Source: Patescibacteria group bacterium (GTDB lineage: Bacteria; Patescibacteriota; UBA1384; XYA2-FULL-43-10). From it: a stretch of 32,000 bases of DNA. Both the position numbers and the translations under genes were made by a program. The first letter of the stretch is position 1. Each line of letters opens with the position of its first letter. The notes under the pieces were generated by a model that saw only the letters and a program-made list of their open reading frames with translations, was not told where the DNA came from and ran no database searches. Below, one piece after another: positions 4,988 through 24,500 of this stretch. The stretch covers positions 123,941 through 155,940 of the forward strand of contig JBAYVT010000002.1 in the NCBI GenBank assembly GCA_041674405.1, read 5' to 3'.

Positions 4988-7114
4988 TTATTCTAAGTGT
5001 TTATGCGTTAAAAATTCATCAATTTTCTCCATAACTGCCGGATATTTTTCAATATTATTCGTAACGATCTTTGCCCCTTCCGCCGCTTCATCGATGAGCT
5101 CGATGTCGGAATACGATGCCATCCTGAGCTCATTATACCCCGACTGTATGGTTCCAAACATATCACCAGCCCCGCGGTTCTTAAGATCTTGCTCTGCCAG
5201 CTTGAACCCATCAAGAATGTTTTCAAAAGATTTCAGTCGCTCTATCGCCCGCGGGTTCTGGGTACTTGAAAATACAAAGCAGAAGGACTGATGCTCGCCA
5301 CGGCCAACTCTGCCACGGAATTGATGCAATTGTGCCAGCCCAAACCGCTCAGCATCTTCGATCATCATGATCGTTGCATTCGGAATATCCACCCCTACCT
5401 CGACCACCGATGTAGATACCAATATATCAAGTTTACAAGCTTTAAATTCAGCCATTATTTCGTCTTTTGATTTTCCGCCTTTGGCGAGACCTCGCCTGCC
5501 CCGTCGGGGCGAGGCGGGCATTCGACCGTGGAGCATTCCAATCTTTAGATCAGGAAAGATCTGTTTGCTCAATCGATTGTATTCCGCCATTACCGATTTT
5601 CTATCTTCGTCGAATAGTGTTTCTCTCGTTTGCGCTTCCGATTCTTCAATCAGCGGGCAAATCACAAAGGCTTGGCGGCCAGATTGAATCTGCCGGCGAA
5701 TGAAGTCATATGCTTTTAGCCTATTTGTCTCCTCAACAAATCTGGTTTTGATCGGTTTTCGGCCTTTCGGCATGGATTTGATAATCGACAAGTCAAGATC
5801 GCCGAAGAGCGCGAGATGCAATGATCTTGGAATTGGCGTCGCTGTCATCGATAGAAAGTGCGGCCTTAACCCTTCTCTGCTCTTCGTGAGTTCCGCCCGT
5901 TGATTTACACCGAATCTATGTTGTTCGTCCACGATCACGAGCCCCAAGTTCTTGATTTCAACTTTGCCCTGAACCAAAGAATGCGTCCCCACTATCACCT
6001 GCCTCTCGAGCTCGCCCGCAACATTTGCCTTTCTCGTAGAGGAAGTCAAAAGCCCGACTGAAACATCTGATTTTTCTAAAAGCTTATTAAGTGTTTCAAA
6101 ATGCTGTTTGGCAAGGATCTCTGTCGGCGCCATAAGTGCCGTTCGGAAGCCGGCTTTCGCAGCAATGTAGGCAGCGAATGCAGCAACCGCAGTTTTTCCG
6201 CTCCCGACATCCCCGTTAAGTAGCCTATTCATTGGTTTTTTTAATGCTAGATCTTTAGCGATTTGCCAAACAGCCTTTTTCTGATCGGTGGTAAGCTCGA
6301 ATGGCAGAGCATCTGCAAATTTCTTAAGTTCGGGATCTGCGGTCTCAATTTTTGGGGCTGATTCTGTTGCGATCTCTTCCTTGATTAATTGCGAACGGAT
6401 GGCAATCAGAAATAATTCGTCGAATGCTATTCTCCGCCTCGCTTTCGATAAGGCTTGCGAATCCTCCGGCTCGTGGATATTTTTCAGAGCCGACCGGATT
6501 CCTAAGAGATCATATTTATCTAAAATGGGTTGTGGTAAATATTCCTCAAGTTTTGAGATTTGTCCGCCAGCCGGCGGATTAATATTTGAGATCAATCGAG
6601 CTATGAAGTAGCTCGACACACCCGCCGTCTCAGGATAAACTGGAACAATTTTTGGCCGGTTCGCTCGGTTTGGCGACTCCATCACAAGCGAATGAGAAAA
6701 AGAATCGTAGGAAACTTTGCCGTTTAATATAACTTCGGATCCAGCTTTCAGCATTTTTGCCAAGTATGGTTGATTAAACCAAACAACTTTGAGCGATCCG
6801 GAGTTGTCTTCAACTACTGCTTCTGTCACGGTAAACCCCCTGCGTCTCGTTCTTTTATTGGCAATGCCCACTACTCGAGCTCGGATCGTGAAGTTATTAG
6901 TTTTTAGTTCTAAGTTATTAGTTAAGTTACTAATTTTAGTGACTTGGGTATAGTCTTTATATCTTCGTGGATAATGATAAATCAAATCTTGGGCTGTATA
7001 AATTCCCAGCTTATTGAGCTTCGGTGCAACCTTTGGCCCGACACCCTTCAAATATTTAATTTCGGTATTTAAATTTATTTCCATTTCACCAACATTATAC
7101 TTTATACTTTTCAC
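4988..7114 (-). CDS. recG: ATP-dependent DNA helicase RecG
   Basis: 708 aa with Walker A GDVGSGKT, DEQHRFG, SMTATPIPRS, VSTSVVEVGVDIPNAT and QLHQFRGRVGRG. The listed start is GTG at 7114; an ATG at 7084 (MEINLN...) is an alternative start. Confidence 0.92.
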   Translation of the reverse strand: MKSIKYNVGEMEINLNTEIKYLKGVGPKVAPKLNKLGIYTAQDLIYHYPRRYKDYTQVTKISNLTNNLELKTNNFTIRARVVGIANKRTRRRGFTVTEAVVEDNSGSLKVVWFNQPYLAKMLKAGSEVILNGKVSYDSFSHSLVMESPNRANRPKIVPVYPETAGVSSYFIARLISNINPPAGGQISKLEEYLPQPILDKYDLLGIRSALKNIHEPEDSQALSKARRRIAFDELFLIAIRSQLIKEEIATESAPKIETADPELKKFADALPFELTTDQKKAVWQIAKDLALKKPMNRLLNGDVGSGKTAVAAFAAYIAAKAGFRTALMAPTEILAKQHFETLNKLLEKSDVSVGLLTSSTRKANVAGELERQVIVGTHSLVQGKVEIKNLGLVIVDEQHRFGVNQRAELTKSREGLRPHFLSMTATPIPRSLHLALFGDLDLSIIKSMPKGRKPIKTRFVEETNRLKAYDFIRRQIQSGRQAFVICPLIEESEAQTRETLFDEDRKSVMAEYNRLSKQIFPDLKIGMLHGRMPASPRRGRRGLAKGGKSKDEIMAEFKACKLDILVSTSVVEVGVDIPNATIMMIEDAERFGLAQLHQFRGRVGRGEHQSFCFVFSSTQNPRAIERLKSFENILDGFKLAEQDLKNRGAGDMFGTIQSGYNELRMASYSDIELIDEAAEGAKIVTNNIEKYPAVMEKIDEFLTHKHLE
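5474..5518. repeat. 45-nt GC-rich palindromic segment inserted in frame in recG (encodes PASPRRGRRGLAKGG)
   Basis: CGCCTGCCCCG-T-CGGGGCGAGGCG forms an 11-bp stem with one bulge across 5493-5516. A second inverted repeat is GGCGAG-AC-CTCGCC (5483-5496). The block is very GC-rich inside an AT-rich gene and sits between conserved HGRM and KSKDEIMAEF. Confidence 0.6.
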
Positions 7115-7132: not shown

Positions 7133-7161
7133 TTGACATTTATTGACCAGCGTGATATAAG
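7133..7161 (+). promoter_or_regulatory. sigma70-type promoter of GC-island unit A
   Basis: TTGACA (7133-7138), a 17-nt spacer containing TG at 7153-7154 (extended -10), then TATAAG (7156-7161). Confidence 0.6.
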
Positions 7162-7219
7162 TGATCTTGTCGTACCGCGAAGCTTAGGCTCGCGGATCTT
7201 CGTCAGGGAGGTAGTGCCA

Positions 7220-7345
7220 ATGCTCGATCGTCTCGGTCACCGTCTCGCGAAGTCGCCGATATCGTACCCGGTTCTCGGGAAGACCATCGCCGCGATGTCG
7301 CGAGTGACCCGCTGGGTCCAGCGGGTGCACGAGATGCCTGGCTAG
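7220..7345 (+). CDS. candidate small basic protein (41 aa, MLDRLGHRLAKSPISYPVLGKTIAAMSRVTRWVQRVHEMPG)
   Basis: AGGGAGG (7205-7211) lies 8 nt before the ATG at 7220. My hand count of GC at codon positions 1/2/3 is about 64/48/81%, the pattern expected of real coding sequence in GC-rich DNA. No homolog was recognised. Confidence 0.3.
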   Translation: MLDRLGHRLAKSPISYPVLGKTIAAMSRVTRWVQRVHEMPG

Positions 7346-7663
7346 CGGTTCCACCCTGCGGACGTCCGGATAGGTGGCTGTTGAACTGGCCGTAAGATCC
7401 GGACAGCGGAAGGTGGGAGCCGGCGGTTGCGTCGTAGGTCGCAAGGACCAACGCGCCGCCGGCTCCCGCCGGCAAGCCTCATCCATCCTTTCTTCTCGGA
7501 GGTGCTATCATTATCCTCCCCACTTCCGAGATTGGTGGAGAAGGAGTTCCCTGGCGGACGCTCCCTCTCCACCACCGCCCCCCAAGACAGGGCACATCGT
7601 CGGTTCCCAAACCGGTGCTCTGTCTGAGTGTAATGCGCCGACCTCCTCGAGGCCGGCGCTTTT
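7346..7663 (+). ncRNA. candidate structured RNA / structured 3' region of unit A (unknown family)
   Basis: A series of long GC helices. 7412-7426 pairs with 7456-7470, a 12-bp perfect core GGGAGCCGGCGG/CCGCCGGCTCCC extendable to 15 bp. 7494-7500 pairs with 7525-7531. 7534-7546 pairs with 7561-7573 (12 of 13 bp). 7585-7595 pairs with 7615-7625 (11 bp with one G-U). The terminator hairpin follows. Confidence 0.35.
7635..7663 (+). terminator. intrinsic terminator of unit A
   Basis: GCGCCGACCTC-CTC-GAGGCCGGCGC (10 of 11 bp) followed by TTTT (7660-7663). Confidence 0.6.
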
Positions 7664-7725
7664 GCGTCTAATGAGGGTATTCTAACTTCTGTGATCTTCA
7701 GTGAAACAATTCTGTGATCGTATAT

Positions 7726-7754
7726 TTGACTTAATGCAGAGCTTCGTATATATT
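7726..7754 (+). promoter_or_regulatory. sigma70-type promoter of GC-island unit B, with upstream direct repeats
   Basis: TTGACT (7726-7731), a 17-nt spacer, then TATATT (7749-7754). The 10-mer TTCTGTGATC occurs twice just upstream (7687-7696 and 7710-7719). Confidence 0.55.
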
Positions 7755-7760
7755 ATTTCC

Positions 7761-8118
7761 GTCGCACTCATCAACTGCCCACGGGAGGGACAACCACTTG
7801 CTCACCATGCTGTTTCTGATGTTGACGTTGATGGCGATCTTGCCACGGCCAGCCCTCCTGTTGGGGCTGATCAGCTTTTTCGGTCGGCGGAGCTCGCCCC
7901 CCTGCGATCCCGCTCCGGTCCTGGAGAGACCGGTCTCTGGCGCCGAGCCATCGGGCCAGGGAAAGTATCAGATGAATGTGTGGGGGTCTGAAGGACCCAC
8001 CGTTGCCCCGGCCTTGCAAGCCCAAGTTTTTTCACGAGTGTCTTCAGGACACTCCTATCGCCTTACAAGCGACTTACTGACAGAGCGGCCCCTGGTATGG
8101 GTCGCTCTCGCTCTTTTT
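7761..8118 (+). other. GC-rich transcription unit B: structured ncRNA or a 108-aa ORF (TTG 7798 to TAA 8124)
   Basis: Bounded by the promoter above and a terminator. GGGAGGG (7783-7789) lies 8 nt before TTG 7798. The ORF starts with the hydrophobic MLTMLFLMLTLMAILPRPALLLGLISFF. My hand count of GC3 is about 78% over the first 60 codons and about 50% afterwards. Internal helices include the perfect palindrome AGAGACCGGTCTCT. Confidence 0.35.
8082..8118 (+). terminator. intrinsic terminator of unit B
   Basis: GAGCGGCCC (8083-8091) pairs with GGGTCGCTC (8099-8107), 9 bp including one G-U. Alternatively AGAGCG (8082-8087) pairs with CGCTCT (8109-8114). T5 follows at 8114-8118. Confidence 0.55.
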
Positions 8119-8138
8119 ATTTAAGCTTATCAATATTA

Positions 8139-8147
8139 TGATATAAT
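8139..8147 (+). promoter_or_regulatory. extended -10 promoter of GC-island unit C
   Basis: TGaTATAAT (8139-8147) is a perfect extended -10. The -35 region (ATTTAA/TTTAAG) is weak. Confidence 0.5.
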
Positions 8148-8203
8148 GCTCTTGCAGAACGCCAACAGATTTTCCACGTCGGATAACGAAGGAGGGTTGT
8201 GCT

Positions 8204-8266
8204 ATGAGGGTTCTGTTCTCTGCCTTGGCATTGCTGGTGCTGGTGGCGCTGGTGGTCGTGGCCTAG
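8204..8266 (+). CDS. candidate 20-aa hydrophobic peptide MRVLFSALALLVLVALVVVA (type I toxin-like or small membrane protein)
   Basis: Canonical AAGGAGG (8189-8195) lies 8 nt before ATG 8204, and the stop is TAG 8264-8266. It is below the 60-aa cutoff of the ORF track. The 3' UTR has hairpins at 8266-8283 and 8315-8333, followed by a terminator. Confidence 0.4.
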   Translation: MRVLFSALALLVLVALVVVA

Positions 8267-8341
8267 GTCCTAGCAAGAGGACCGCGGTGGCTGGATCAAC
8301 AGCAAGAATCGGATCATCCGCCCTGGGCGGATGGCGAGATT

Positions 8342-8371
8342 AAAACGACGGCTGTCCCTAGCCGTCGTTTC
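8342..8371. terminator. bidirectional hairpin terminator (unit C on plus, mnmA on minus)
   Basis: ACGACGGC (8345-8352) pairs with GCCGTCGT (8361-8368), extendable by A-T pairs. It is flanked by AAAA on the left and TTTCT on the right. Confidence 0.55.
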
Positions 8372-8426
8372 TCGTCGTATGAGATAGTTGCCCAATAGTT
8401 TTTAGTTTTAACATTTGAGTTTTGAG

Positions 8427-9536
8427 TTATTTAATGTATCCCCCTCCCAAAACTTCATCACCCAAGTAGAACACTGCGGATTGACCGGGAGTAATCGCTC
8501 TTTGCGGCTCATCAAATTCAACTACAATGTTTTTGATCTTTGATATTTGACCTTTGATCTCGCATGGCACCGCTGCATGCCGATATCTTATTTTGACCTT
8601 AAGGCTCATAAGTTCTTCAGCCCTTAAGTTTTGAGGTTCGATCAACCAATTCAAATCTGTCACCGTCATCTCTTTGCTATATATATCCTCATCGTCACCC
8701 ACGATCAGTTGGTTTTTCGAAACATTAAATCCAACCACATAAAGTGGTTTTTTTTGAGTTTTTAGCTGACAGCTTGCAGATTGCAGTTGATCTATTCCTT
8801 TGCGTTGTCCGATTGTATAATTGACCAATCCTTCGTGAGTCCCGAGTACATTCCCCTCTTTATCGGCAATTTCGCCGGGTTTAAAATATTTCTGATCCAA
8901 ATATCTTTTCAAAAAAAAGCGATAATCACGATCACCAAAAAAGCAAATTTCCTGGCTTTCCGGCTTTTCCTTGACCGGCAGATCCCACTTTTTTGCCAGT
9001 TCCCGCACATCTTTCTTCTTCATTTCTCCGAGCGGAAACAGAGTTTTTGATAGCTGATTCTGATTCAATCGATAGAGCATGTAGCTTTGATCCTTGGTGC
9101 CGTCGATACCAGCTAAAAGCTGATAACTGGCTACTGGCAGCTTCTGGATTCGCGCATAATGTCCTGTCGCAAGATAATCACAGCCGATAGAAAGCGCTTT
9201 TTTAAGTAGAAGATCAAATTTGATTTTTTCATTACAGACAATGCACGGGTTTGGGGTTTTTAATTTTTTGTATTCATCGATGAAATAGTCAACAACATCT
9301 TTTTTGAATTCATCCACAGCGTTTATAACATAGAACGGGATACCAAGGCCGTGCGCCACCTTTCGCGCGTCTTCGAGCGCCTCATAGTTGCAACATCGAT
9401 TTTCCTTTACCACATTACACATAGGGTCAGACCATAATTTCAAAAAAAGCCCGACTAATTCGTGGCCCTCATCTTTTAACATTTTTGCCACGACGGAAGA
9501 ATCAACTCCACCGGACATTGCGACCGCAATTTTCAT
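8427..9536 (-). CDS. mnmA: tRNA-specific 2-thiouridylase MnmA
   Basis: 369 aa with the PP-loop MKIAVAMSGGVDSSVVA, catalytic-Cys context NPCIVCNEKIKF and ATGHYAR. Its ATG overlaps the folD stop (TAATG). Confidence 0.9.
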   Translation of the reverse strand: MKIAVAMSGGVDSSVVAKMLKDEGHELVGLFLKLWSDPMCNVVKENRCCNYEALEDARKVAHGLGIPFYVINAVDEFKKDVVDYFIDEYKKLKTPNPCIVCNEKIKFDLLLKKALSIGCDYLATGHYARIQKLPVASYQLLAGIDGTKDQSYMLYRLNQNQLSKTLFPLGEMKKKDVRELAKKWDLPVKEKPESQEICFFGDRDYRFFLKRYLDQKYFKPGEIADKEGNVLGTHEGLVNYTIGQRKGIDQLQSASCQLKTQKKPLYVVGFNVSKNQLIVGDDEDIYSKEMTVTDLNWLIEPQNLRAEELMSLKVKIRYRHAAVPCEIKGQISKIKNIVVEFDEPQRAITPGQSAVFYLGDEVLGGGYIK

Positions 9537-10938: not shown

Positions 10939-12201
10939 CTATCCAATTGGGCTTATCTTTCTTAATTTCTCAATTATTCCCGGCAATACTTCCATAAGGC
11001 GATCTATTTCTTCTTCGGTGGTGTATCTCCCAATTGTGAATCGAATTGAGCTATGTGCTCTTTCTTCGGGGTATCCAAGCGCCATTATCACATGTGAGGG
11101 TTCAAGGGAACCCGATGTACAAGCCGAACCTGTAGAGGCCGCGATCCCTAGCATATCCAAATTGAGCAGAATCGACTCGCCTTCGATGCCGGCAAATGAA
11201 ATATTTACATTATTCGGGCTTCTGCAAATATCCGTGCCATTCAATTTGGCATTTGCAATATTATCGACAATACCCCTGATTAATTTTTCTCTCAATTTCA
11301 ATGATTTTTCCGTTGCATTAGTCATTTTAAGAGATGGAAAATCCTCTGACACAATCGCCCCATCGGTGTCAGCGGCATCGCGGATTACTAGTTCGGCCGC
11401 CTTGGCAAAACCGACTATGCCCGCGACATTCTCCGTGCCCGCTCGCTTCTTGTATTCTTGTCCACCACCGGTGATTTCCGGCTTAAGCGGGGTGCCTTTT
11501 TTGGCGAATAAAAGGCCGACTCCCTTCGGCCCATAAATTTTATGAGCCGTCATTGTAAGAAGATCGACATGCAAATATTTAGTTCCCATTTCGAAATACT
11601 CTGCTGCTTGCACTGCATCGGTATGGAAATAAATTTTTTGGGCATTGGGGTTTTTTTCAAGCCGACCCAGGTTTTCCTTCTCAATCATCTTGCCAATTTC
11701 GCGGATCGGCTGTGCTGTGCCAATTTCATTATTTACATACATTACAGAAACCAGGGCAGTGTTTTTACGGATTGCTTTTACTACTTGCTGGCTATTGATT
11801 ACGCCATCTTGCTCCGGGCTTATGTAGGTAGCTTCGATTTTCCCCTGTTTCTCTAGATCTTTTACGGTATCCAAAACTGCATGATGTTCAAATGTTGAAG
11901 TTACAACATGAGGTTTTTTATTCATGCCTTTATAGTCTGGCAACATCGATTCGATCACGCCGCGGATAGCCAGATTATCCGATTCCGACCCGCCAGATGT
12001 AAATAGAATTTCGCTTGGAGCGCAATCAAGAAAAAATGCCAAAAATTCTCTGGCTTTGTCGACTGCCGCTCTCGCCTCCTGCCCAAACCCGTGAACCGAC
12101 GAAGGATTGCCGAAACTCACGCCAAAATATGGCGTCATTGCTTCAATAACTTCCGGCGCAACTGGCGTGGTCGCAGCATTATCTAGATATATTCTCTTCA
12201 C
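10939..12201 (-). CDS. iscS: cysteine desulfurase (NifS/IscS family, PLP-dependent)
   Basis: 420 aa with YLDNAATTP, the PLP-lysine context TMTAHKIYGPKGVG and the active-site loop STGSACTSG. The GTG start at 12201 overlaps the upstream stop (GTGA). Confidence 0.9.
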   Translation of the reverse strand: MKRIYLDNAATTPVAPEVIEAMTPYFGVSFGNPSSVHGFGQEARAAVDKAREFLAFFLDCAPSEILFTSGGSESDNLAIRGVIESMLPDYKGMNKKPHVVTSTFEHHAVLDTVKDLEKQGKIEATYISPEQDGVINSQQVVKAIRKNTALVSVMYVNNEIGTAQPIREIGKMIEKENLGRLEKNPNAQKIYFHTDAVQAAEYFEMGTKYLHVDLLTMTAHKIYGPKGVGLLFAKKGTPLKPEITGGGQEYKKRAGTENVAGIVGFAKAAELVIRDAADTDGAIVSEDFPSLKMTNATEKSLKLREKLIRGIVDNIANAKLNGTDICRSPNNVNISFAGIEGESILLNLDMLGIAASTGSACTSGSLEPSHVIMALGYPEERAHSSIRFTIGRYTTEEEIDRLMEVLPGIIEKLRKISPIG

Positions 12202-12422
12202 TTATCTTCCTTTGATTTCTCAACGATCGATACTACTTTTCTTAAATCAGAAACGCACTTCTTGCAATTTTCCTGTTTGGACAAATTATCAAAATCAGAT
12301 TTAGATATTAAATAAGCCACCGGCTTGGAATACCTGACAACCTCAAACACATCTCCGTCCTCAACTTCTTTAAGAACCTTAGAAATGTTATTTTGCAATT
12401 CGTTTACGTTGATATTTTTCAT
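12198..12422 (-). CDS. Phd/YefM-family antitoxin-like protein (no cognate toxin gene adjacent)
   Basis: The N-terminus of this 74-aa ORF, INVNELQNNISKVLKEVEDGDVFEVVRYSKPVAYLISKSDFDNL, matches the YefM/Phd pattern (compare E. coli YefM [45 protein letters not shown]). Confidence 0.6.
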   Translation of the reverse strand: MKNINVNELQNNISKVLKEVEDGDVFEVVRYSKPVAYLISKSDFDNLSKQENCKKCVSDLRKVVSIVEKSKEDK

Positions 12423-12511: not shown

Positions 12512-15500
12512 TTAAGATTTAGAATTTCTCTTTTCCATCTCAATCTTTTTATTTACGGCAGAAATTTCTTCATCCGTATCAAACCTTACCGGTTTTGGCA
12601 GAGTGTAACCTTCCTTGGTAGCTAAAATTGTGTACCTACCCCGTTTCAAAATCGCCGAAAACTTACCTTTGTCATCAGTTACCGCAGTCTTTACAAGCCT
12701 TGTGTTATCTCCGGTCATTATCCTAACCAACGTTAGGCCGATAGGCTCGCCCTTATGTCGGTCTACCACCATGCTCCATGGCGACTTTCTTATGACCAGT
12801 GAGAAATTGATAACCCAAAGCAGAATATAGCCGGCAAGGATCAGATAATTTAACAAATTTGGGTCATGAATTAAATTGTTCAAGACCAATATGGTACCGG
12901 CCGTAAGTACAACAATCGAAGCATAATTGAAGAATCTTTCCATTTTTCTAAGCCAACCCAAGATTGCATGAATACCAGAAAGGCTTTTGCCATTTATACT
13001 CATTATGATCGTCGGCACCAAAAATCCTTTGGTATAGCTATCAATCTCATATATTTTCCCTGTGTCAAAATCATAATATTGATCCGGTTTTGGTGCGAGC
13101 TGGTACTTGTCTTTCTTCGCGATGATTTTGTATTTGCCCGGAGGTTCGGCGAATCCGTACACGCCTGATTTATCGGTGGTTGTTGTCTCAATAACCCTTT
13201 CTGTGCCATCTTCGCCTACTTTAATCAAGCTAACCATCGCTCCAGAAAGCGGCAAACCGGTTCCATCCTCGAGCACTTGGCCCCATTTTTTGCGTTTCTT
13301 TTTAACCGTACCGAAAGATAGAATGGAATAAACAATTATATGAATGACTTCCTTGAGTGAGAATAAAGTTATTAAGTTTGTTGCGGGTGCCAATCCGGCG
13401 ACAACTACTGCCATGCCCAGAGCTGCTGCGGCAGTCACTGGCGGAGCAGCCTCTTTTGAGATACCAACAGCTGCATAAACTTTTTCTATTCCCCCTGCAA
13501 CAATATCGATTGAAACCGCCACATCTTCGACGCCGCCGACAATGCCACCAATAATAACTTCACCGATTGTTTCTTTTCGTACATTTACTGACGCAGCAGC
13601 CTTCACATCACCGAATGAAGCTTGAACGGTGTTTTCAAATGAGCCAACTTCCTTACCTGCGGTGAATAATCCGGTTTGGTCAATCTCCCCGCCACCATTC
13701 ATAACCGACCACACGATAATTGCTGTTGGAATTTCTGAATCATCTGAGGCAAAAGCTTTTGCACTAAACTGCACGGAGTCTTCAACTTTTATTTTCGCAC
13801 TTGTCGGTGAAATGATAATGTATGATGCAGTTTTTTCCGGATTTCCCAGAGTTGTCACCTCAGACGCAGTAGAAAAATCAGTTTCAACGTTGCTATTATT
13901 TCTTGCCTTAAGCCTATAAGCATAATTCGTAGAAGCTGCAAGGCCTGTGTTTATAAATCCGTCGCTTCCACCCCAGTCGGCATACAATTGCCAATCGGGA
14001 CTATCGGAAAATGCCCCATCGGAATGCCTGACATACTTACCTGCGGTGTCATTGTAAATCGCATATCGTGTGTTAGCTGGGTTGCCGTTTTGGTTAATCG
14101 CAATTTTTACTGATGACTCGGAAACTACTGAAAGAATTGGGGCATCTGGTGTGTTCGCAAGAGTATAAGATGTAGCAAAATTTGACTTTTCCGTTCCTTT
14201 CCTATTGGTCACGGTAACTTGGCGAGTATATGCCGTATTCGGAGCAAGAGATTGTTCTAGCCAGGACGAGGCAGAAGCTGCAAGTGTTCCCGAGAGCGGA
14301 TTGCCAGCGGCATCTAACACTGCCCAACTGGTGTGATCATCGTCGGTATTTGACCAAACCCAATTAATCTGGCTGGTAACAATGTCTGTTCCCCTGAAAT
14401 CTGTAGAGGGTGTAGGCCCAAGGCAATTCGCCGTTGTGAAATTTATGATTGCAGAATAATTCCCCGCGCCATTCTGGTTTGACGTTGCGGACACCTTGGC
14501 GTAATACTTTGTTTTTCTTGCAAGGCCCGATAAAGAAGTGGCTGTTGTGCTGATATCCGAAATTGTGCCTTTATTTGAAGCTCCGGAATCCGTTCCGTAC
14601 GAAAGAGTATATTTATCCGCGCCCTCTGGCGCAATCCATGTCAGGTTCGCCGAAGTTCTGCAAACGGCATTTGCTTCTAGGCTCGCTGGAGCAGCTGGCG
14701 GAGTGACTTTTGCCGAAGATGGAGAATAAGTTGTGTCGGTATTGTCCCCATTTCTTGCTTTGGCCTTGATCCAATACTGGGTATTTGGATCAAGATTAGC
14801 CAATGTATATGATGTACTTGTCTGCCAGGACATGCCGGCGGGATCGGTAAAATCCGTGCCATTTATTGAATATTGGATCCAATAGTTTGTTCCTGATGGA
14901 TTCAAACTTGGGCTAATTGTTCCTGTTACGAAATATGCCCCCGCCACCGTTGAAACCGTCGGCATATTGGCAAGCGTGTACTTTGGAGATGAATAGGCGC
15001 TTGTTGAGTTGCCGGCGTCATTAAACGCAACAACTTTAGCACAATATTGTGTATTTATATCCTTACCATCAACGTCTTGCGAGGTTTCCCCGGCACCAGT
15101 CGTATAGTCGGGAGAATCTGGATAAGAAGCCTGTGAACAATCAGAATTCGGAGTGGTAGAAATATAAACCTTGAATCCGGTTTCATCAGATGAGTTGTCG
15201 TCCCAAGTCACTTGGAAAGAATCGTTTTGGATGGTGCCTATTGCTGCATTAGTTGGCGCACTCGGCGCTGTAACACAAGAGCCGGTGGGAGAAATATTCC
15301 AATCGGTATTACTTCCCCCATCCGTAGAATAAGTAGCACAGAAAGAGGCACCCGAATTGGTAGAATTTGAGATGGTGGCGTACGAAATAGTTGCGGTGGC
15401 CGGGTTAATATTCCAGCCACCAGAACCACCAGACCTCTTAAGAACTACATGGCTTCCCGAAGTTCCGGTTACCGTCCATGTGCCAGATATCGTTTGGGTC

Positions 15501-18500
15501 GAGCCCGCAGAAAAGGATAAGGTTTTGCCTGCAGTAGCGGCAGTGAGGTTATTAAAAGTCGTATCTCCCTCTATCAAGGAGTCACCAGTTAGCGTAACTG
15601 TACCGCTCCCAGGAGTGAAGATACCGCCTGCATGGTTCCAACCGCCAGATACACTCATGGTGGATGGAGCACTGAAGCTAGCATTACCGTTTAAGATGAA
15701 ATTACCAATGTTCATCGAAGGGTTATTTGTGATTCCATCAACATCGGTCTGGTTGGTTCCATCACCAATTGTAAGATTGTTAGTAACACCAAAGCTACCG
15801 GAAGATAGAGTCAAAGTTTTGTTTCCAACAAAGCTCTGCCAGATAAAACCGGTCATATCGCCAAAAGAGTGATAAGGACCTGAACCAACATTATAGGTAC
15901 CAATGACGGCACCAGTCGAGCCGTTAAGCTTTGTTATGGTGTTGCCGCCAATGCTCGTTACCCATACATTGCCGTCGCCATCAATTCCCGGATGGTCGCC
16001 ATTGCCGATCGAATAAGTTCCGATTACTGCACCAGTCGAGCCGTTAACTTTGTAGACCGTTCCGCTATTAACAACCCAGACATTGCCGCTGCCATCAACT
16101 GCCAGATTAGCACCAGGAACCGAGTAGATATCAATGACAGCGCCGGTCGAACCGTTAAGCTTGGTAATGCCAATATCGCCGTCGCTAGCCGTCCAGACAT
16201 TCCCATCACCGTCGACTGCTATGCTAAAAGGAGCGCCGTTAACCGAATAAGTGCCGATCAGTGCACCAGTTGAGCTGTCAAGTTTAGTAACGTTACCACT
16301 TCCGTGATTGCAAATCCAAACATTGCCACTACGATCAGCCGCCACTCCCGAAGGACTAGTACCCGTTGAATATGTGCCCATGACTGCACCAGTCGAGCCA
16401 TTAACCTTATTAATATGGCTGCTATCGTAGGGGACCCAGACATTGCCAGCATTATCAACGCCCGGGTTACCACCACCGACCGCATAAGTGCCGATCAGTG
16501 CGCCGGTCGAACCATTGAGTTTAGTAACGTTGCCGCTGTAAGGATTGCCGACCCAGACATTGCCACTGCCATCAACTGCCACACCATAAGGACCAGTACC
16601 CACCGCGTAAGTTCCAATGACGGCACCAGTTGAACTGTTAAGTTTGGTTATATTGTTGCTACCGCTATTAGTCACCCAAACATACGGTGTTACCGCTGGA
16701 TCCAGCAATTCTAGGTTATAATAATTTGCCGCCGTAATGTTTGTGTTAGAAGAAGCACGATATATAAAGGTAGAAGTCGAAGCAGTAAATGTACCCGTTT
16801 TAACAAACGGCGTGCCCGAACCGGTCAAAGTTATTGTCCGATTTGAAGCATCGAAGGTACCAGCATTGATCGTCAGTATGTTTGTAGTTGTGATATCCCC
16901 GGCTGCAGTGAAAGTCGTTCCCGCATGATCAAGGTAAAGATTGTAGTAAGTGGTCGCCGTAATATTAGTTGCCAATGCTCCGGTATACTTGAGGGTTGAT
17001 GTGCCCTCTTGGAAAGTTCCGGTTACTACCAATGGCGTTCCTGGCGCGGCCAAAGTAATCGTTCTGGAGGATGCAGCAAATGTGCCGGCATTGATGGTAA
17101 GGACTCCATTGATTGTGATATTTCCGGCAGCAGTAAAGGTTGTGCCGGTATGGTCTGCAGCGTAGAGGTTGCAATAGGTAATAGCATTAATGTTTGTTGC
17201 GCTTGTTCCTTGGAATTTGACTGTCGATGTACTTTCGGTAAATGTGCCGCTGATGGATAGTGGATCACCTGATTCTGTCAAAACTAAGGTAGTATTATCC
17301 AGATTGACAACAGCAGTTGCCGGGATTTTAAGATTTGGGATAGTGGAGGTGGGAGCAGATGATGAATTAGGTCTCCAGGTATCAGTGCCTATGACATAGA
17401 GTATCTGGGAGGTTAGAGTTGCTTGATTGTAGGGCATAGCTAGGTCATTGGTTGCATTACCAATATCAAAGAGGATATCAGCATCAGACGAAACTGAACC
17501 ATCGTATTGTGATAAATCGGTATTGGATAGTGTTTGGGCAGTACCATTACCGACGACCAAATGCTGCTCAAAGAGAGTAACTCCAGTAATATCTCCCGAT
17601 GTGTACTTGGTAACAGCATTGGCTCGATGGGATTCAGTCGCGCCATCGATGAATACCGTAATTACATCACCGGCAGAGGGTTCGGTAACGCCAGAAATCG
17701 TCCAGGAACCAGAAGCAGTGGTGCCTGTAGCTGCATCCAAGGTGCCATTGATCGCTACCTTGACCGTCTCACCATCAGCACAAGCGGTTGATTCATCATA
17801 CTGCTTACAAGTGCCGGAGATAGAGAAGGATGAACAGCCACTTGTTACAGTTGGAGCAGGAAGGGTACCATTGAACGAGGTCCAAGTCCCAGTCGTTGGC
17901 AAGACAGTGGGAGCACCGGCACTACCCCAGTCCACATAAGCCGACTGATCAGCAGGCGCAAGAAGTTTGCTGGTGTCCGACAACAGGTACCAACTACTGT
18001 CCCATGGATCTACTGCCAAAACCCTATTACTTGTATTGGTGTAATAAGGATTACTCCTAGCATCTACACTCGCATAAGTATACGACCCATTATAGCTTGA
18101 ATCGCCCGCTCCAGAAAAAGTATACGACGAACATGCGGAGCATGATCCGGTTAAACTAATATTCCAGCCGGTATTTCCCCCGCCGTCAACTGAGTAAGTC
18201 GCACAGAAACTACCTGTATTACTAGACTTAGAAACATTGGCGTAGGATATTGCAACATTATTACTTGCAGATAAATTCCAGTTGGCACCGCCCGATGGAG
18301 CTAAAGTAATTAAGTTACCGGAAGTCCCAGCAATATTAATTGCATAATTGAAATTATAGTTTGAACCCGAGTTGAAAGTTAGGGTTGAGGGCGCAGTTGT
18401 GTTGGTAAATGTACGCGTGACCGACGTTGCCCCAGTGAAGGTGAAATTTGTATTAGCATGCTCAGCCGTAAGGTTGTAATAAGTTACTGGTGTAATATTT

Positions 18501-21500
18501 GTTGCGGAAGAACCTGTATATTTTATCGTTGAAGTCGAGTAAGTAAATGTACCTGTGGCTACGAAAGGTGTACCTGATCCAGACAAAGTGATGGTTTTAT
18601 TTGATGCATTAAATGTGCCGGCATTTATTGTCAAAACATTGTTTGCGGTGATGTCGCCCGCCGCAGTGTAGGTTTGGCCAGCTTTATCGATGTAAAGATT
18701 GTAATAGGTCGCAGAAGTTACATTAACCGGACCTGTACCTGTGTATTTTACAGTTGAAGTAGAAGCGGTGAATGTTCCGGTTTTAACAAACGGCATGCTA
18801 GTTCCAGATAAAGTAATTGTCTTATTTGATGCATCAAAGGTTCCGGCATTGATGGTAAAAACACCAGTTCCGTTTGAACCAGTTGAGATATCACCGGCTG
18901 CTGTAAAAGTTGTTCCTGCGTGATCTAAATAAAGATTATTATAGGTAGTTGATGCAATATTAGTCGCAGAAGCGCCTGTGTATTTGACTGTGCCAGTCAT
19001 ACACTGAAATGTACCGTTGATCACAAACGGCGTACCAGAACCGGAAAGGGTGATGGTACCTGTCGGCGAATCATTAAATGTACCAGCATTAACGGTGAAA
19101 ACATTTGTTGATGTAATATCCCCTGCTGCGCTAAAGATGGTCCCTGCACGATCTAAATAAAGATTGTAATAGGTAGTCGCTGTAATATTCGTTGCCAACG
19201 AGCCAGTATATTTAACTGTGGATGTAGAAGGTGTAAAAACGACATTATTTACAAAAGGAGTACCTGATCCAGACAAGGTAATAGTTTTATTGGACGCATC
19301 GAAAATCGAGTCATTGGTCAAAACATTAGTGACATTTATATCGCCCATGGCTGTAGATACTGCTGTGGTTACTAAGTGGAGGTTGTAATAGGTGGTAGAG
19401 GCAATGTTTGTTGCCGCTGCGCCGTAATATTCTACGGTTGAAGTTGATGCCGTAAAAGTACCAGTAACAACAAATGGCGTTCCCGTTGACATGAATGTAA
19501 TAGTCTTATTAGAGGCATCAAAGGTGCCAGCATTGATGGTAAAAATATTTTCCACCTTGATATTTCCAGCCGCAGTAAATGTAGTACCTGCATGGTCCAG
19601 ATACAGATTATAATAACCAGGAACCATTCCCGAACCCATTGCAGTTACGTTTGTCGCCGAAGCACCGGTATATTTGATCGTTGAAGTTGAAGATTGAAAC
19701 GTTCCGTTATTAACAAATGGCGTGCCCGAACCAGATAATGTGATTGTTTTATTGGATGCATTAAATTCACCAGTGGTAATGCTTAAGACACCAGATACAT
19801 CAATATCGTTATTTGCTGTCCAAATCCCCGAGCCATCATTGAAGGTCAAATTATTAAAGGCCGATCCTCCCGTCATATTTCCGGAAAGAGTTTTATCAGC
19901 TCCACCCGTCTGAAAAGTAACGGTTCCGGAATTGTTGTCAAATGTTCCGCTTGAATGATTCCAATTTCCATTAACAATAAAATTATTAGATGATGCGGGC
20001 GCACTTAATGACCCGCCCGAAATTGTGACATTACCAGCACTAATATCATGTGCCCCAGCGGTTAAGGTACCGGATGAAACAAGGAGATTGTTTGTAACAT
20101 CAATATTGCTGGAAAGAGACCAGGCTGAAGATGGGATCGAATAATAAATCGTGCCTCTTACATAATTTATAATTGCATTTGAAACAGATGGAGTTATTTT
20201 CTTAATTGTCATCGCAACGCCAAAGCTTGAATCGTTAACATCATTTGGCGTCCAAGTTAATCCCCACAGATTTCCATCCCCACCAAACGGAACATAATCC
20301 TCTGTCCCCGACCATAATGCATCCGCAGATTGATTGGTGCCCCCAATGGTACCAGACTTAATGATTTCAATAATATCATCGGAAACAGGAGGCGAACTAC
20401 CCATCCTTTTTGCTTCCATTTTAATACCTGTAACCGTTGCATTGGTTGGAATATTAAAACCAAAATTTGTCGCTTTTAGATAATTAGAGCGTTTTCCTTG
20501 GGGAATACCAACAATTCTCGCATAATTTCCATCATCAGCAGTGATATCTTCGGGAGTTGACCAAGGACCATCTCCATAGCTTGCATCATTGGTTCCTGTT
20601 CCACATCCCAATGTGGAACTAGTACTTCCCCCGCCGTTCTCACCTGCGATTGTAAGATTATAAAATTTCTGCCCAGAACCCAATATGATTGAGAAGTCTC
20701 CGCTTGTCCCATTAAAATTTATTGTAGAATTTCCTTCATTGAAAGTAACATTTGAAGAATCCCAATCACCTGCAATATTAATTATGTGGCTTCCAGGGCT
20801 AAAGCTACCTGACGTCATAGTAAAACCATCCGCAATCGTAATATCTCCAGCTGCAATAAAGTCTGTATTCGCATGGTTGATGACTAAATTATTATACGTC
20901 ACGGAAGCCAAATTTGTATCTGATGATCCTTCGTAGGAAATTGTTGAAGTTGACGGAGTAAAGGTACCGGTCACAACAAACGGGGTTCCACTCCCTGATA
21001 AAGTAATGGTTTTATTGGAAGCATCAAATGTGCCTGCATTGATAGTAAGGACTCCAGAAACGGTAATGTTCCCTGCTGCAGCAAAGGTAGTACCAGTCTT
21101 GTCTGCCGCGTAGAGATTGTAATAAGAAAGAGCATTAACATTCGTAGCGCCTGATCCCTGGAATTTAATGGTGGAAGTGCCAATTGTGAAGGTGCCGGTG
21201 ATAGAAAGTGGTGTGCCGGAGGCGGTTAATGCTAGTGTTGTGCCGGTAAGGTTGACGATGGCTGATGTCGGAATTACAAGGTTAGAAATGGTGGATGTTG
21301 GAGCATCAGTAGCAGCCGGTTGCCAAGTGTTGGAAGCCAAAACATAAAGCTTCTGGTCGGTATCTGTTTGGGTGCCTGACTCGGGCAGTGTTAAGTCTTT
21401 GGTTGTGGCATTAACTTCAAAGAAGATATCTTCATCAGACGAGACAGAGTTATCGTATTTCTCCATATCAGCATTTGAAAGAGTTTGGTTATCAGCTGAA

Positions 21501-24500
21501 CCGATGGATAAATGTTTTTCATAAAGTGCTATGCCGGATACATTACCGGAGACATACTTTGTCACTGCATTTGCTTCATTGGCATCAGCAACACCATCGA
21601 CAAAGATGGTGATAGTGTCGCCAGCCGATGGGGCTGTTACTCCGGTGATAGACCAGGACCCGCTTGAAGTTGTACCGGTAGCCGCATCGAGGCTCCCATT
21701 GATTGCTACTTTGATCGTTTCGCTGTCAGCACAATTCGAGGATTCGTCATATTGTTTGCAGGTACCGGAGATGGAGATGCTGGCCGGCGGAAATGCCCAA
21801 TGATGGTTATTTCCACCGTCATATCCGCCAGTCGTGGCATTTACCAAGCTTCCTCCAGTTGCATCGGAATCGGTGACATTAACATAAGAAGCAGGTGGGC
21901 TATCCTGGACAACATTAAAATTCCAATGGTTGGTAGGTGTAGATGAAACCATAAATATTCTAGTACCTACTGCTCCGCCATTGATATCAAGGCCCATGAT
22001 TGAATAAGTTGATCCAGCATGGAATGTAAGTTTAGAGGAAGGGGTAGTATCAGTAAAGACCCCATTGATAGTTGCCGAATCTGCAAAATAAACACCATTT
22101 GCCGACGCATTAGTAATAGTAATGCTGTTAAAATCATGATTTCCATTTGTTCCACCAGCAGTGATGGTCTGTAAATCACTACCATCCAAGGTTAGTGTTC
22201 CGGTACCAGAAGTAAAGATGCCAGTGGCCGAATTCGTATAATCGCCTGCAAGATAAAATGCAGCCGTACTTGAAGCCGTGAGAGTATTACCAGCGTCAAT
22301 AATAACATCTCCATCAACGTTAACTATGGGATCGTTTGTTTCGAATGACAATACGGCAGTTAATGCGCCTCCTCCAACATGCAAATTATTTGAAACATTT
22401 AAAGTGCCTGCCTGAACATTATGGGTACCTGAAAAATTTTCACGCGCTATCTGAAGGTTATAATATGTAGTCGCGGTTACATTTACAGCGGCGCCGACTG
22501 GGTCCGGGCAATCATAAAATAATGTTGAATTGTTGGCAGTGAAAGTGCCGTTGATCACAAAAGGAGTGTTAGTTCCTAATAGTGTAATTGTTTTATTTGA
22601 AGCGTCGAATTCACCTGCATTAATTGTTAAAAGATTTGAAACAGTCATATCCCCAGCCGCGGTAAAAGTCGACCCAGTTCGATCAAGATAAAGATTGTAG
22701 AATGTCGTCGCCGTCACATTTGTCGCAGATGAACCCTTATACTGAACGGTAGATGTGCCCTCCTGAAAAGTAGCGTTTATATTCACAAAAGGCGTGCCTG
22801 AGCCATTCAAAACAATTGTTTTATCGGAGGCATTAAAGGTTCCTACATCTAGCGTCAAAACGCTGCCAACGGTAATATTTCCAGCTGCGGTAAAGGTGGT
22901 ACCAGTATGAACCAAATATAGATTATAATACGTCGCACTAGTTACATTGGTAGCGCTCGATCCGGCATACTTTATGGTTGAAGTAGCTTCTTGAAAAGTA
23001 CCATTTACAACAAAAGGTGTACCAGAACCATATAGATAAACTGTCTTATCCGATCCGTTATATATCGTCCCGGTCTGAATAGTGAAAACTCCGTAGACCG
23101 AGAACGAGCCGGAAGAAAGCGGAGTAAATGTCGTGCCCGAATGGTCGAGGATTAGATTGTGGAACCCGAGTAACGCAACGTCAGTTGCTGACGCACTCTG
23201 ATATGTGACGGTTGAAGTGTCGTAATTGAAGGTACTGCCCGTCTCCATTCTAAGAGGCCTCGACGAACTTTGTCCTGAGCCAGTAATTACTAAAGAATTA
23301 TTATCCAATGTCATCGTAGACGATGCTTCGGCATATGATTTCGGCACAGTTGATGTGGTTCCACCACCGGATGCAGGCCGCCATGTATTATTTGCCTTAA
23401 TTATAATCTTTTGGTCTGCATCAGTTTGGGTTCCGACTGCCGGCAGGGTTAGATTGTTTGATCCGTCAATTTCGAAAAAGATATCTTCATCGGAGGAGAC
23501 GGAATTATCGTATTTAGAGATATCGTTGTTCGATAATGTTTGATTATCGTCAGAACCTAGATACAAATGCTTTTCGTAAAGGCTAATTCCTGTAATATTG
23601 CCCGAACCATCGTATTTGGTAACAGCATTCGCTTCGTTACCGTCAGCCACTCCATCGATAAATACGGTAATTGTGTCCCCAGAAGCAGGTGCTGTAACAC
23701 CGCTTATGCTCCACGAACCTCCGGATGTGGTTCCGGTTTGGGCTTGAATAGTACCATTTACCGCAACTTTTACAGTCTCTGAATCAGCGGCATTTGTCGA
23801 TTCGTCATATTGCTTAGCAGTCCCTGAGATTAAAATTGTGGCAGGCCCACCTCCGCCTTCAGAAATAATAACCCCCGGCTCGACTTCTCCTGAAGCATCC
23901 CAGTCGTAAGGAGTCGGGTCACTAACTGGATCAGCATTAAACCAAGTATACCCAGGGTAAAAACTACCCAAAGTTGATGAAACAGCCCAAGATCCTCCCA
24001 TATTTCCACTAAACCAAAGATAAGAGTTATTTTCATTTTTATAGACAGGGTACGGCGACGAACCGATATCTCCAAAGTATTGATCGTTATATGCAAACGT
24101 ACCATTTGCATTCGTATTACCAGCATTTGTGCCTGTATATGTATGGCCCGGATCTCCTCCCGGCGTTACGCCGCTTGGCGCCGGAGCGGTTCCCAGATTG
24201 GCCGTCCAGCTATTGCTTCCGGGAAGCGCGCCCTCCATAAGATAATAGTGTACATCCATCATCGCATCATTAAGAACGTCGCTAAGCATATATGCTCCGC
24301 CCCCGTCCCAGTACAAGTACATATTATTAGCGTTTTTCCAATAGTCACTTCCATAGGCATCCGTTCCGCCGTAAGAGTATTCGCCGTTATAATTGGCATC
24401 TCCTGCTCCCGCAACAGTCCATGTGGTTGTATTAGCAGCTAGAGCTTTAGGAGGCTTTTCAAAATTGATTGATGGGTTGACCATAACAAACCCAAGAACC

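Follow-up and report, generated by a model that had tools for sequence, protein, structure and literature searches.

What does a GC-rich spacer encode when it lies between two housekeeping genes of a candidate phyla radiation (CPR) bacterium and gene callers report none of the short open reading frames (ORFs) described below? This question is raised by a Patescibacteria group bacterium (assembly GCA_041674405.1), for which we analyzed 32,000 nucleotides of contig JBAYVT010000002.1 (positions 123,941 to 155,940 of the forward strand; hereafter the window, to which coordinates refer unless a relative is named). The spacer, an island at 7133-8375, separates recG (4988-7114; the gene call in contig L001 begins at 7084) from mnmA (8427-9536). 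Both flanking genes are on the minus strand, and the three units of the island are on the plus strand. We propose, with a little more confidence than doubt, that the island consists of three autonomous, same-strand, monocistronic structured RNA genes with small ORFs and that these genes are specific to a Berkelbacteria-like CPR lineage.

The GC content is 57.0% in the island but 42.9% in the remainder of the window. Its maximum in 150-nucleotide windows of the island (0.69, versus 0.58 elsewhere) is the sole such spike across the 32 kb. A sliding GC profile resolved three GC-rich blocks at 7150-7665 (62.6% GC), 7790-8110 (59.8%), and 8175-8370 (58.7%), with 100-nucleotide peaks of 0.69-0.70 and flanks of about 40%. 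The stretches between the blocks contain 32-44% GC. A preliminary description of the locus had pointed out these AT-rich separators, and its four hand counts of GC were reproduced (63.3% for 7381-7440, 68.3% for 7861-7920, 23.3% for 6901-6960, and 43.3% for 9001-9060). The island is real and not an assembly chimera, as four independent assemblies show it in identical or near-identical form. The same 13 kb including the island is 100% identical in ENA ERZ27247358 (a 138-kb contig) and in Logan SRR6484325, an assembly of another run, and is near-identical in JGI 3300037067, where the differences consist of N-gaps and two bases near the contig end. A 744-nucleotide contig from a further ENA sample, ERZ27247363, is 99.3% identical to the locus. 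We also considered hypervariation of the kind produced by diversity-generating retroelements and rejected it, as the seeming excess of differences in contig L003 came down to N-gaps and two differences near the contig end.

Each of the three units has the same order of elements: a promoter, a 5' hairpin, a strong Shine-Dalgarno sequence, a short ORF, a GC-rich non-coding tail, and a terminator. In all three, the Shine-Dalgarno sequence lies 7 to 8 nucleotides before the start codon and near the predicted 5' end. A codon-phase GC scan found three-base periodicity confined to the three short ORFs led by these Shine-Dalgarno sequences and absent over the tails. GC content at third codon positions (GC3) is 0.81 in the unit 1 ORF, 0.86 in the first 35 codons of unit 2, and 0.86 in the unit 3 ORF, relative to 0.35-0.45 in the other genes of the window. 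The long ORFs of the island have flat codon-position GC, no Pfam match, and no homologues, in agreement with the earlier view that they are chance frames. The label "ORF-poor" given to the spacer therefore holds for long ORFs, which lack a coding signature, but overlooks a short ORF with its own Shine-Dalgarno sequence in each unit.

The preliminary description also listed three sigma-70 promoters and three hairpin-plus-T-run ends. A consensus promoter scan detected the unit 2 promoter, whereas those of units 1 and 3 were read directly from the sequence, because the scan is strict about the final position of the -10 hexamer, which excludes unit 1, and because the -35 element of unit 3 is weak. 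Since the same scan over the whole window found no enrichment over shuffled sequences, support for the promoters comes mainly from their conservation in relatives. Similarly, a simple terminator scan passed only the unit 2 terminator; in units 1 and 3, the terminal GC hairpin is strong but the T-run after it is short (TTTT and TTTCT). Independent expression of the three units is thus a prediction from sequence signals only.

Twelve contigs of relatives were inspected, yielding four related islands (in L096, L097, L100, and L102) and one strain variant (L106). The host is a CPR bacterium whose closest mnmA genes come from metagenome-assembled genomes of Berkelbacteria and Patescibacteria, and the clade shares a synteny of a PhdYeFM-like gene, cysteine desulfurase, NifU, FolD, mnmA, the spacer, recG, and a ComEA-like gene. 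All three units occur in L097, a related Berkelbacteria-like species, in the same order as in the window. L096 carries units 1 and 2, L100 carries only unit 1 in a rearranged context, and L102 carries unit 1 and a different unit of about 130 nucleotides. Interspecies similarity of the units is patchy but significant (for example, E = 5e-10 by nhmmer for unit 1 of L097 versus L100). When mnmA of the window is compared with mnmA of these species, identity at four-fold degenerate sites is no higher than 28-34%, which amounts to saturation. Island sequence that can still be aligned at this distance must therefore be under constraint, and the retained similarity indicates that the island was inherited and not recently imported. 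The collections held no closer relatives for covariation analysis, as the next mnmA is 71% identical.

The different unit of L102 (5240-5400, minus strand) runs from promoter to terminator over about 130 nucleotides between unit 1 and mnmA. It has no obvious ORF, resembles a small RNA gene, and is unrelated to units 2 and 3.

Unit 3 has the substitution pattern of a translated, selected peptide, and this pattern argues for clear purifying selection. Its promoter, read from the sequence, is an extended -10 element, TGaTATAAT (8139-8147, plus strand), with a weak -35 and a predicted start at about 8154; L097 has TTGACA-18-AATAAT at this position. A Shine-Dalgarno sequence, AAGGAGGG (8189-8196), lies 7 nucleotides before an ATG at 8204 that opens a 20-codon ORF (8204-8266, stop codon TAG). 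The predicted peptide, MRVLFSALALLVLVALVVVA (20 amino acids), has an orthologue of 22 amino acids in L097, MLRVLVCALVLLALLAAVAVVA, and both are extremely hydrophobic (grand average of hydropathy, 2.7-2.8). Over 21 codons compared between the window and L097, 6 are identical, 9 are synonymous (such as AGG/CGA and TTG/CTA), and the remaining 6 conservatively replace one hydrophobic residue with another, whereas the other two frames, used as controls, gave 1 synonymous and 12 non-synonymous changes. Differences at codon positions 1, 2, and 3 number 6, 4, and 12. The stop codon and the surrounding sequence (GTCGTGGCCTAGG) are also conserved, and this is the sole intergenic hydrophobic small ORF with a Shine-Dalgarno sequence in the window. 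The preliminary description had left room for "small-protein or toxin genes, or both," and the conserved peptide of 20 to 22 residues bears out that option.

The non-coding tail of unit 3 (8267-8372, plus strand) contains hairpins and ends in a terminator hairpin (8345-8368) followed by TTTCT. On the minus strand the same hairpin is followed by TTTTAAT, and it probably terminates transcription in both directions, serving the convergent mnmA as well. The whole transcript folds better than shuffled sequences (z = -3.56), and its similarity to L097 extends over 119 nucleotides at 66% identity (E = 5e-8 by blastn). In both the window and L097, the unit 3 Shine-Dalgarno sequence is able to pair with an upstream pyrimidine stretch. 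Read-through of the unit 3 TAG stop codon was considered and rejected, as the extended product of the window has no conserved counterpart in L097.

In two other relatives, L104 (5309-5839, minus strand) and L039 (5223-5834, minus strand), a secreted-protein gene occupies the unit 3 position beside the 3' end of mnmA. The signal peptide of this type of protein (e.g., MKKLLLAAVLAGVWLLAVAAFA) resembles the unit 3 peptide, with no sequence similarity detected, and unit 3 may have originated from a truncated signal peptide.

Unit 1 reads as mainly a structured RNA of about 500 nucleotides whose 3' domain appears to have been kept through compensatory substitutions. Its promoter, also read from the sequence, consists of TTGACA (7133-7138, plus strand), a 17-nucleotide spacer, and an extended -10 element, TGaTATAAG (7153-7161), and is divergent from recG, with a predicted start at about 7167. 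A GTATTGACA-17-TGnTATAAA promoter heads the unit 1 homologues of L097, L096, L100, and L102, and all four end in clear terminators in the equivalent position. A predicted 5' stem-loop (7175-7195, plus strand; CCGCGA...UCGCGG) has counterparts of different sequence but equivalent position in L097, L100, and L102. It is followed by a Shine-Dalgarno sequence, GGGAGG (7206-7211), 8 nucleotides before an ATG at 7220, and by a 41-codon ORF (7220-7345; MLDRLGHRLAKSPISYPVLGKTIAAMSRVTRWVQRVHEMPG, stop codon TAG). GC contents at the three codon positions of this ORF are 0.64, 0.48, and 0.81, and within unit 1 the periodicity extends over the ORF only. A Shine-Dalgarno sequence and a short ORF with a GC3 of 0.74-0.88 recur across four species (those of the window, L097, L100, and L102), with flat composition just downstream. 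The unit 1 ORF thus looks translated, as judged from codon-position GC, with a peptide sequence that seems free to vary: the peptides are unlike between species, and the L097/L100 pair shows no synonymous excess. Because the peptides are not alike, translation of unit 1 may matter more than its product. We also tried read-through of the TAG stop codon and rejected it, as a TGA is met 13 codons later.

The rest of unit 1 is a GC-rich, structured, non-coding tail (7346-7634, plus strand) that contains inverted repeats I1-I3 and a near-perfect hairpin (7412-7426/7456-7470), and that has no codon periodicity and no frame with a protein-family match. The fold of unit 1 is far stronger than that of shuffled sequences in the window (z = -6.95 over 506 nucleotides) and in the L097 homologue (z = -8.09), and reaches z = -3.64 in the L100 homologue. 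Because the minus strand folds nearly as well (z = -5.94), the strand was assigned from the promoter, Shine-Dalgarno sequence, and terminator. A conserved 3' domain (7534-7625, plus strand) comprises helix H1 (7534-7574), a C-rich linker, CCGCCCCCCAA (7576-7586), and helix H2 (7586-7625) with an inner hairpin and a CCCA loop. In isolation, the domain is predicted to fold as H1, a single-stranded C-rich linker (GCCCCCCAA), and H2, and the L097 counterpart independently folds alike. A hand alignment of the two over 20 base pairs gave 12 identical, 1 one-sided, 7 compensatory, and 0 broken pairs. An unbiased MAFFT alignment agrees: the 8 outer pairs of H2 are 100% paired with 4 compensatory changes, compared with 31-50% paired and 0-1 compensatory changes in slid controls. 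MAFFT was also seen to place the unit 1 helices one register off. The unit closes with a terminator-like hairpin, GCGCCG...CGGCGC (7635-7659), followed by TTTT (to 7663, plus strand), a run of only four T that the simple scan does not report. These features are consistent with a single unit 1 transcript carrying both a translated-looking short ORF and a conserved structured domain, its translation and limits being read from sequence.

Unit 2 has a TTGACT-17-TATATT promoter (7726-7754, plus strand; predicted start at about 7761), the one detected by the consensus scan, in a region that is 83% identical over 41 nucleotides to L097 and is also conserved in L096. A Shine-Dalgarno sequence, GGGAGGG (7783-7789), precedes a TTG at 7798 (or an ATG at 7807) that opens a 108-codon frame ending at 8124 on the plus strand. 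Coding support appears limited to the hydrophobic first 35 or so codons (MLTMLFLMLTLMAILPRPALLLGLISFFGRRSSPP), where GC3 is 0.86, compared with 0.65 for the whole frame. The strain variant L106, which comes from another sample, has a synonymous TTG-to-TTA change and an ATC-to-CTA change (Ile to Leu) in this hydrophobic N-terminal part, and a one-nucleotide deletion in a six-C run (7892-7897) shifts its frame to give about 59 amino acids. The corresponding ORFs of L097 and L096 are 55 and 58 amino acids long and 35% mutually identical. Because the frame is shifted in the variant and unlike the ORFs of L097 and L096, only the first 35 or so codons are credible as coding, and the full 108-codon frame is probably not conserved. 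The C-run could be phase-variable; alternatively, its difference in length could reflect misassembly, as the variant contig is short and of low coverage.

What unit 2 shares with L097 is its promoter, its 5' region, and a 3' block (8021-8117, plus strand in the window) that contains CCCAAGTTT, a hairpin (8036-8054), the element TCGCCTTACAAGCGA (8058-8072; TCGCCTnnCAAGCGA as conserved with L097), and a terminator (8082-8108) with five T. Because this block follows the stop codon in L097, its conservation there lies at the RNA level. The hairpin GAGUGUC/GACACUC corresponds to GAUGCCC/GGGCAUC in L097, with compensatory changes in four of seven pairs and none broken. Both the shared layout in L097 and the compensatory pairs of units 1 and 2 answer the call of the preliminary description for conservation and covariation in relatives.

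The heptamer TTCTGTG occurs twice upstream of the unit 2 promoter (7687-7693 and 7710-7716). In L007 (7330-7440, minus strand), six or more copies of it precede a GC-rich cassette. CACAGTG/TACAGTGTG repeats lie upstream of a cassette promoter in L005 (6730-6850, minus strand). Such short repeats upstream of cassette promoters could form an operator array for a shared regulator.

The GC-richness of the spacer extends beyond the species that carry these units. In most relatives the spacer is GC-rich and holds cassettes on the strand opposite mnmA, each with a near-consensus promoter and a terminator and with species-specific content. The cargo includes a family of about 150 amino acids (in L004, L098, L108, and L043), a secreted-protein family of about 170-200 amino acids (in L104 and L039), an Lnt-like CN-hydrolase, and an amidase-like protein. 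The cytoplasmic family of about 150 amino acids keeps a GC3 of 0.71-0.77 over 30-61% amino-acid identity, and GC3 in the secreted family is still 0.73-0.77 where identity has fallen to 41%, compared with 0.32-0.44 in mnmA and 0.26-0.38 in other small genes of the spacer. The spacer is a clade-wide hotspot of GC-rich cassettes, and GC-richness tracks the borders of transcription units and persists through speciation. A single old transfer is insufficient to account for such lasting, unit-bounded GC-richness, which must be maintained by selection on RNA or codon use or by a unit-specific biased process. Taken with inheritance at saturated synonymous sites, these observations leave the term "compositionally alien" unsupported in the sense of foreign DNA.

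Searches against known families returned nothing for the island. With Rfam 15 at gathering scores, the only match in the window was a tRNA-Leu outside the island. A scan of the island at a permissive E-value gave nothing credible, the best match being ar14, whose 24.8 bits fall far short of the gathering score (58.8) and reflect only C-rich motifs and a terminator. Among the 12 related loci, Rfam found tRNAs and chance-level matches only, and nothing in the homologous islands. No match at or near gathering score was found for transfer-messenger RNA (tmRNA), RNase P RNA, signal recognition particle RNA, 6S RNA, OLE, GOLLD, ROOL, or HEARO, and ARAGORN found no tmRNA, confirming the earlier statement that hallmarks of the first three are lacking. 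RNase P and tmRNA hallmark motifs sought by eye in the unit 1 homologues turned out to be coincidental hairpins only. The ten longest frames of the island had no Pfam match, and the small peptides had nothing relevant in Pfam and NCBIfam at E-values up to 10. A phmmer search of the unit 2 108-residue frame against 1.84 billion protein representatives found only its own strain variant and low-complexity matches. An exact-product look-up gave no match, the islands showed no resemblance to the relatives' cargo proteins when searched with tblastn, and a Pfam search of that cargo yielded nothing bearing on the island. Searches with blastn against phage and plasmid collections gave no match, and of two motif scans of viral contigs, one was empty and the other gave a single chance match. 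Literature searches turned up no account of such islands in CPR genomes and nothing relevant on CPR small RNAs or small proteins. The claim of three plus-strand units of no known family is thus upheld, and the Rfam check leaves their novelty standing.

How might such genes work? The unit 3 product would be a single-helix, extremely hydrophobic peptide of 20 to 22 residues that, together with the unit 2 peptide, could insert into the cell membrane, either as a type I toxin or as a small membrane-protein modulator. The GC-rich folded bodies may make the transcripts more stable and control access of ribosomes to them. In unit 1, the exposed C-rich segments might act by pairing with ribosome-binding sites rich in G, for instance the GGGAGG(G) found in units 2 and 3; unit 1 would then be a dual-function RNA comparable to RNAIII. 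Behavior like that of a type I toxin or a dual-function RNA is thus possible. A fuller version of this model is one that we offer tentatively and consider on balance improbable: an undescribed gene class at a fixed spacer beside mnmA, in which GC-richness is unit-bounded and selected, composed of a dual-function RNA of about 500 nucleotides and two structured mRNAs for membrane micro-peptides. It would act as a regulatory or toxin-like module, possibly at the episymbiotic cell envelope, and the folded GC-rich body itself would be selected.

Several results weigh against these proposals. Repeat searches and duplex energies compared with shuffled sequences revealed no significant or conserved complementarity between the units, leaving regulatory pairing unsupported. 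The main structural alignment of the unit 1 3' domain is hand-made, and in a two-sequence shuffle control 28 of 500 shuffles did as well. With 2 to 5 homologues per unit, there are too few for statistically significant covariation. The unit 1 peptide shows no protein-level constraint, the window's unit 2 ORF is dissimilar to those of L097 and L096, and the whole-unit fold of unit 2 reaches a z of only -1.05. The promoters and two of the three terminators depend on reading of the sequence and on conservation, and the proposals do not account for the GC-richness of the units.

Among the alternatives, we considered a canonical type I toxin-antitoxin locus, in which unit 3 (perhaps also unit 2) would encode a membrane toxin and the RNA of unit 1 or 2 would be an antitoxin that blocks translation by pairing. 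Type I toxins are hydrophobic single-helix peptides of 18-35 amino acids, encoded in intergenic regions by structured mRNAs and typically missed by gene callers. Those with very short hydrophobic products include the toxins of the Ibs/Sib, ShoB/OhsC, TisB/IstR-1, and Zor/Orz systems of enterobacteria (cf. PMC3919570, PMC4147584). Unit 3 is alike in its short, conserved, ultra-hydrophobic peptide, strong Shine-Dalgarno sequence, intergenic position, own promoter and terminator, structured mRNA (the z of -3.56 given above), and a ribosome-binding site that could be sequestered by the upstream pyrimidine stretch, and the N terminus of unit 2 is also hydrophobic. Further in favor of this alternative, the unpaired C-rich segments of unit 1 are in principle complementary to GGGAGG ribosome-binding sites, and a stretch of 15 nucleotides in unit 1 (7377-7391) is 80% complementary to unit 3 (8289-8303). 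However, this stretch is not conserved, as L097 has a 12-nucleotide match between units 1 and 2 instead, and duplex energies between the units are no better than those of shuffled sequences (z from -2.0 to +1.7). The promoter scan found no convincing antisense promoter, and the island lacks an identified complementary or antisense partner RNA. Neither Pfam nor NCBIfam gave a match to a described type I toxin, Rfam gave none to an antitoxin RNA, and the island has neither sequence nor profile similarity to known toxin families. It also differs in its CPR host and its strikingly GC-rich transcript, and any toxin role or toxicity is putative. Because conserved inter-unit complementarity was not found and three species (those of L096, L100, and L102) have unit 1 but lack unit 3, we keep a canonical toxin-antitoxin locus as a rival that we regard as unlikely.

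The comparison of unit 1 with dual-function RNAs is similarly mixed. Known examples are RNAIII of Staphylococcus aureus (514 nucleotides, with a 26-residue delta-haemolysin and C-rich loops that pair with Shine-Dalgarno regions), SgrS/SgrT, and SR1/SR1P (cf. PMC5521070, PMC8152036). Unit 1 is alike in its length of about 500 nucleotides, its many hairpins, its 5'-proximal short ORF, and its long structured non-coding part, and its C-rich segments (the single-stranded linker and a CCCA/UCCCC loop) are conserved in position. It is unlike RNAIII-type RNAs in that it has no homology to them, its peptide is not conserved, and its regulatory pairing is a proposal drawn from sequence.

A second alternative, that all three units are purely non-coding structured RNAs and that their short ORFs are untranslated chance frames, would fit the strong fold z-scores, the compensatory changes, the poor conservation of the unit 1 and unit 2 peptides, and the absence of the ORFs from gene calls. 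We nevertheless consider it quite unlikely. The third-position excess of unit 3 (12 versus 6 and 4) and its 9 synonymous changes versus 1 in control frames argue against it, as do the confinement of GC3 periodicity to the Shine-Dalgarno-led ORF of every unit (a pattern seen in four species in the case of unit 1) and the conserved strong Shine-Dalgarno sequence at the correct spacing from each start codon. The preliminary description had leaned toward structured RNA genes, a view that the compensatory changes of units 1 and 2 sustain but that proves too narrow given these ORFs. GC-rich intergenic regions have served as a search criterion for structured non-coding RNAs in AT-rich genomes, as in the pipelines of the Breaker laboratory (PMC6429828, PMC8632094, PMC11109978, PMC8723152). 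The island resembles such regions in being long and GC-rich within a lower-GC genome, with a strong fold signal and compensatory changes, but it differs in that its units carry translated-looking ORFs and match no Rfam family. Because relatives have GC-rich protein genes at this locus, a high GC content does not by itself point to non-coding RNA here.

Those same protein genes bring up a third alternative, that the island consists of decaying GC-rich protein genes from a high-GC donor, with unit 3, for example, as a leftover signal peptide. In its favor, the spacer of relatives holds intact GC-rich genes with their own promoters (those for the proteins of about 150 residues and for the secreted, CN-hydrolase, and amidase-like proteins), L104 and L039 have at the unit 3 position a secreted-protein gene with a signal peptide resembling the unit 3 peptide, and the long frame of unit 2 is broken in the strain variant. 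However, no island frame resembles the relatives' cargo or Pfam families, and the unit 2 frame matched only its own variant among the 1.84 billion proteins, so that Pfam, phmmer, and tblastn alike failed to yield the donor homology that the preliminary description had considered. The truncated form of unit 3, including the stop codon and the tail, has been retained between species whose synonymous sites are saturated and is under purifying selection, and helices are kept via compensatory changes. Furthermore, cargo genes keep a GC3 of 0.71-0.77 across 30-61% amino-acid divergence, and their high GC is therefore maintained and not a fading relic. Together, these points make decay very unlikely.

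Phage morons offer another comparison: they are genes with a promoter and terminator of their own that have been inserted between conserved genes and stand out in base composition. The island cassettes are alike in being autonomous (sigma-70 promoter, intrinsic terminator) and deviant in composition, with content that varies at a fixed site. In contrast to morons, they are chromosomal, lie between housekeeping genes without a prophage, integrase, or attachment repeats, and are inherited vertically with their GC bias kept over long divergence. No flanking target duplication was found, the sole direct repeat being inside recG. A 24-nucleotide recG segment (6900-6923) is 79% identical to the AT-rich spacer adjoining mnmA (8398-8421); we rejected this pair as a target-site duplication, as the left copy lies about 200 nucleotides inside recG, and the likeness is probably a coincidence between two AT-rich sequences. 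The segment belongs to a low-complexity stretch of 23% GC (6895-6945) in the region of recG that encodes the N terminus. Overall, the likeness of the island to known systems does not go beyond general architecture.

Finally, an assembly chimera or contaminating high-GC DNA, which the preliminary description had raised and which could be read into the sharp composition change at both borders and the several related contigs that end in the island or have N-gaps there, is dismissed by junctions that are identical in the ENA, Logan, and JGI assemblies and a second ENA sample, by homologous islands at the equivalent place in other species, and by the host-type AT-rich promoters inside the island. 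The breaks themselves comprise the contig ends of L096, L097, and L102 in or beside the GC-rich island and N-gaps of L003 at window positions 7835-7860 and about 8212, and they suggest coverage or assembly trouble at the composition jump.

Elsewhere in the window, two adjacent giant ORFs on the minus strand (12512-24688 and 24704-31909; 4,058 and 2,401 amino acids) have weak fibronectin type III matches. Giant ORFs of this type are typical of CPR surface proteins. A gene for a 74-residue PhdYeFM-type antitoxin-like protein (about 12198-12422, minus strand; 3115-3339 in L001) overlaps the start of the cysteine desulfurase gene. Its position is kept throughout the clade, and inspection of the adjoining sequence showed no toxin gene.

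To our knowledge, the small proteins and regulatory RNAs of CPR bacteria are almost undescribed, as such genes escape both gene callers and libraries of RNA families. If the units of this locus prove to be ordinary, they would still serve as a warning that GC-rich intergenic spikes alone do not prove non-coding RNA. The locus gives three conserved and testable candidates: a membrane peptide of 20 residues (unit 3), a large folded RNA that also carries a short ORF (unit 1), and another RNA with a small ORF (unit 2). RNA stability, the codon choice of very highly expressed genes, and a local biased process are candidate causes of the unit-bounded GC pattern, and explaining this pattern could inform how reduced genomes tune expression.

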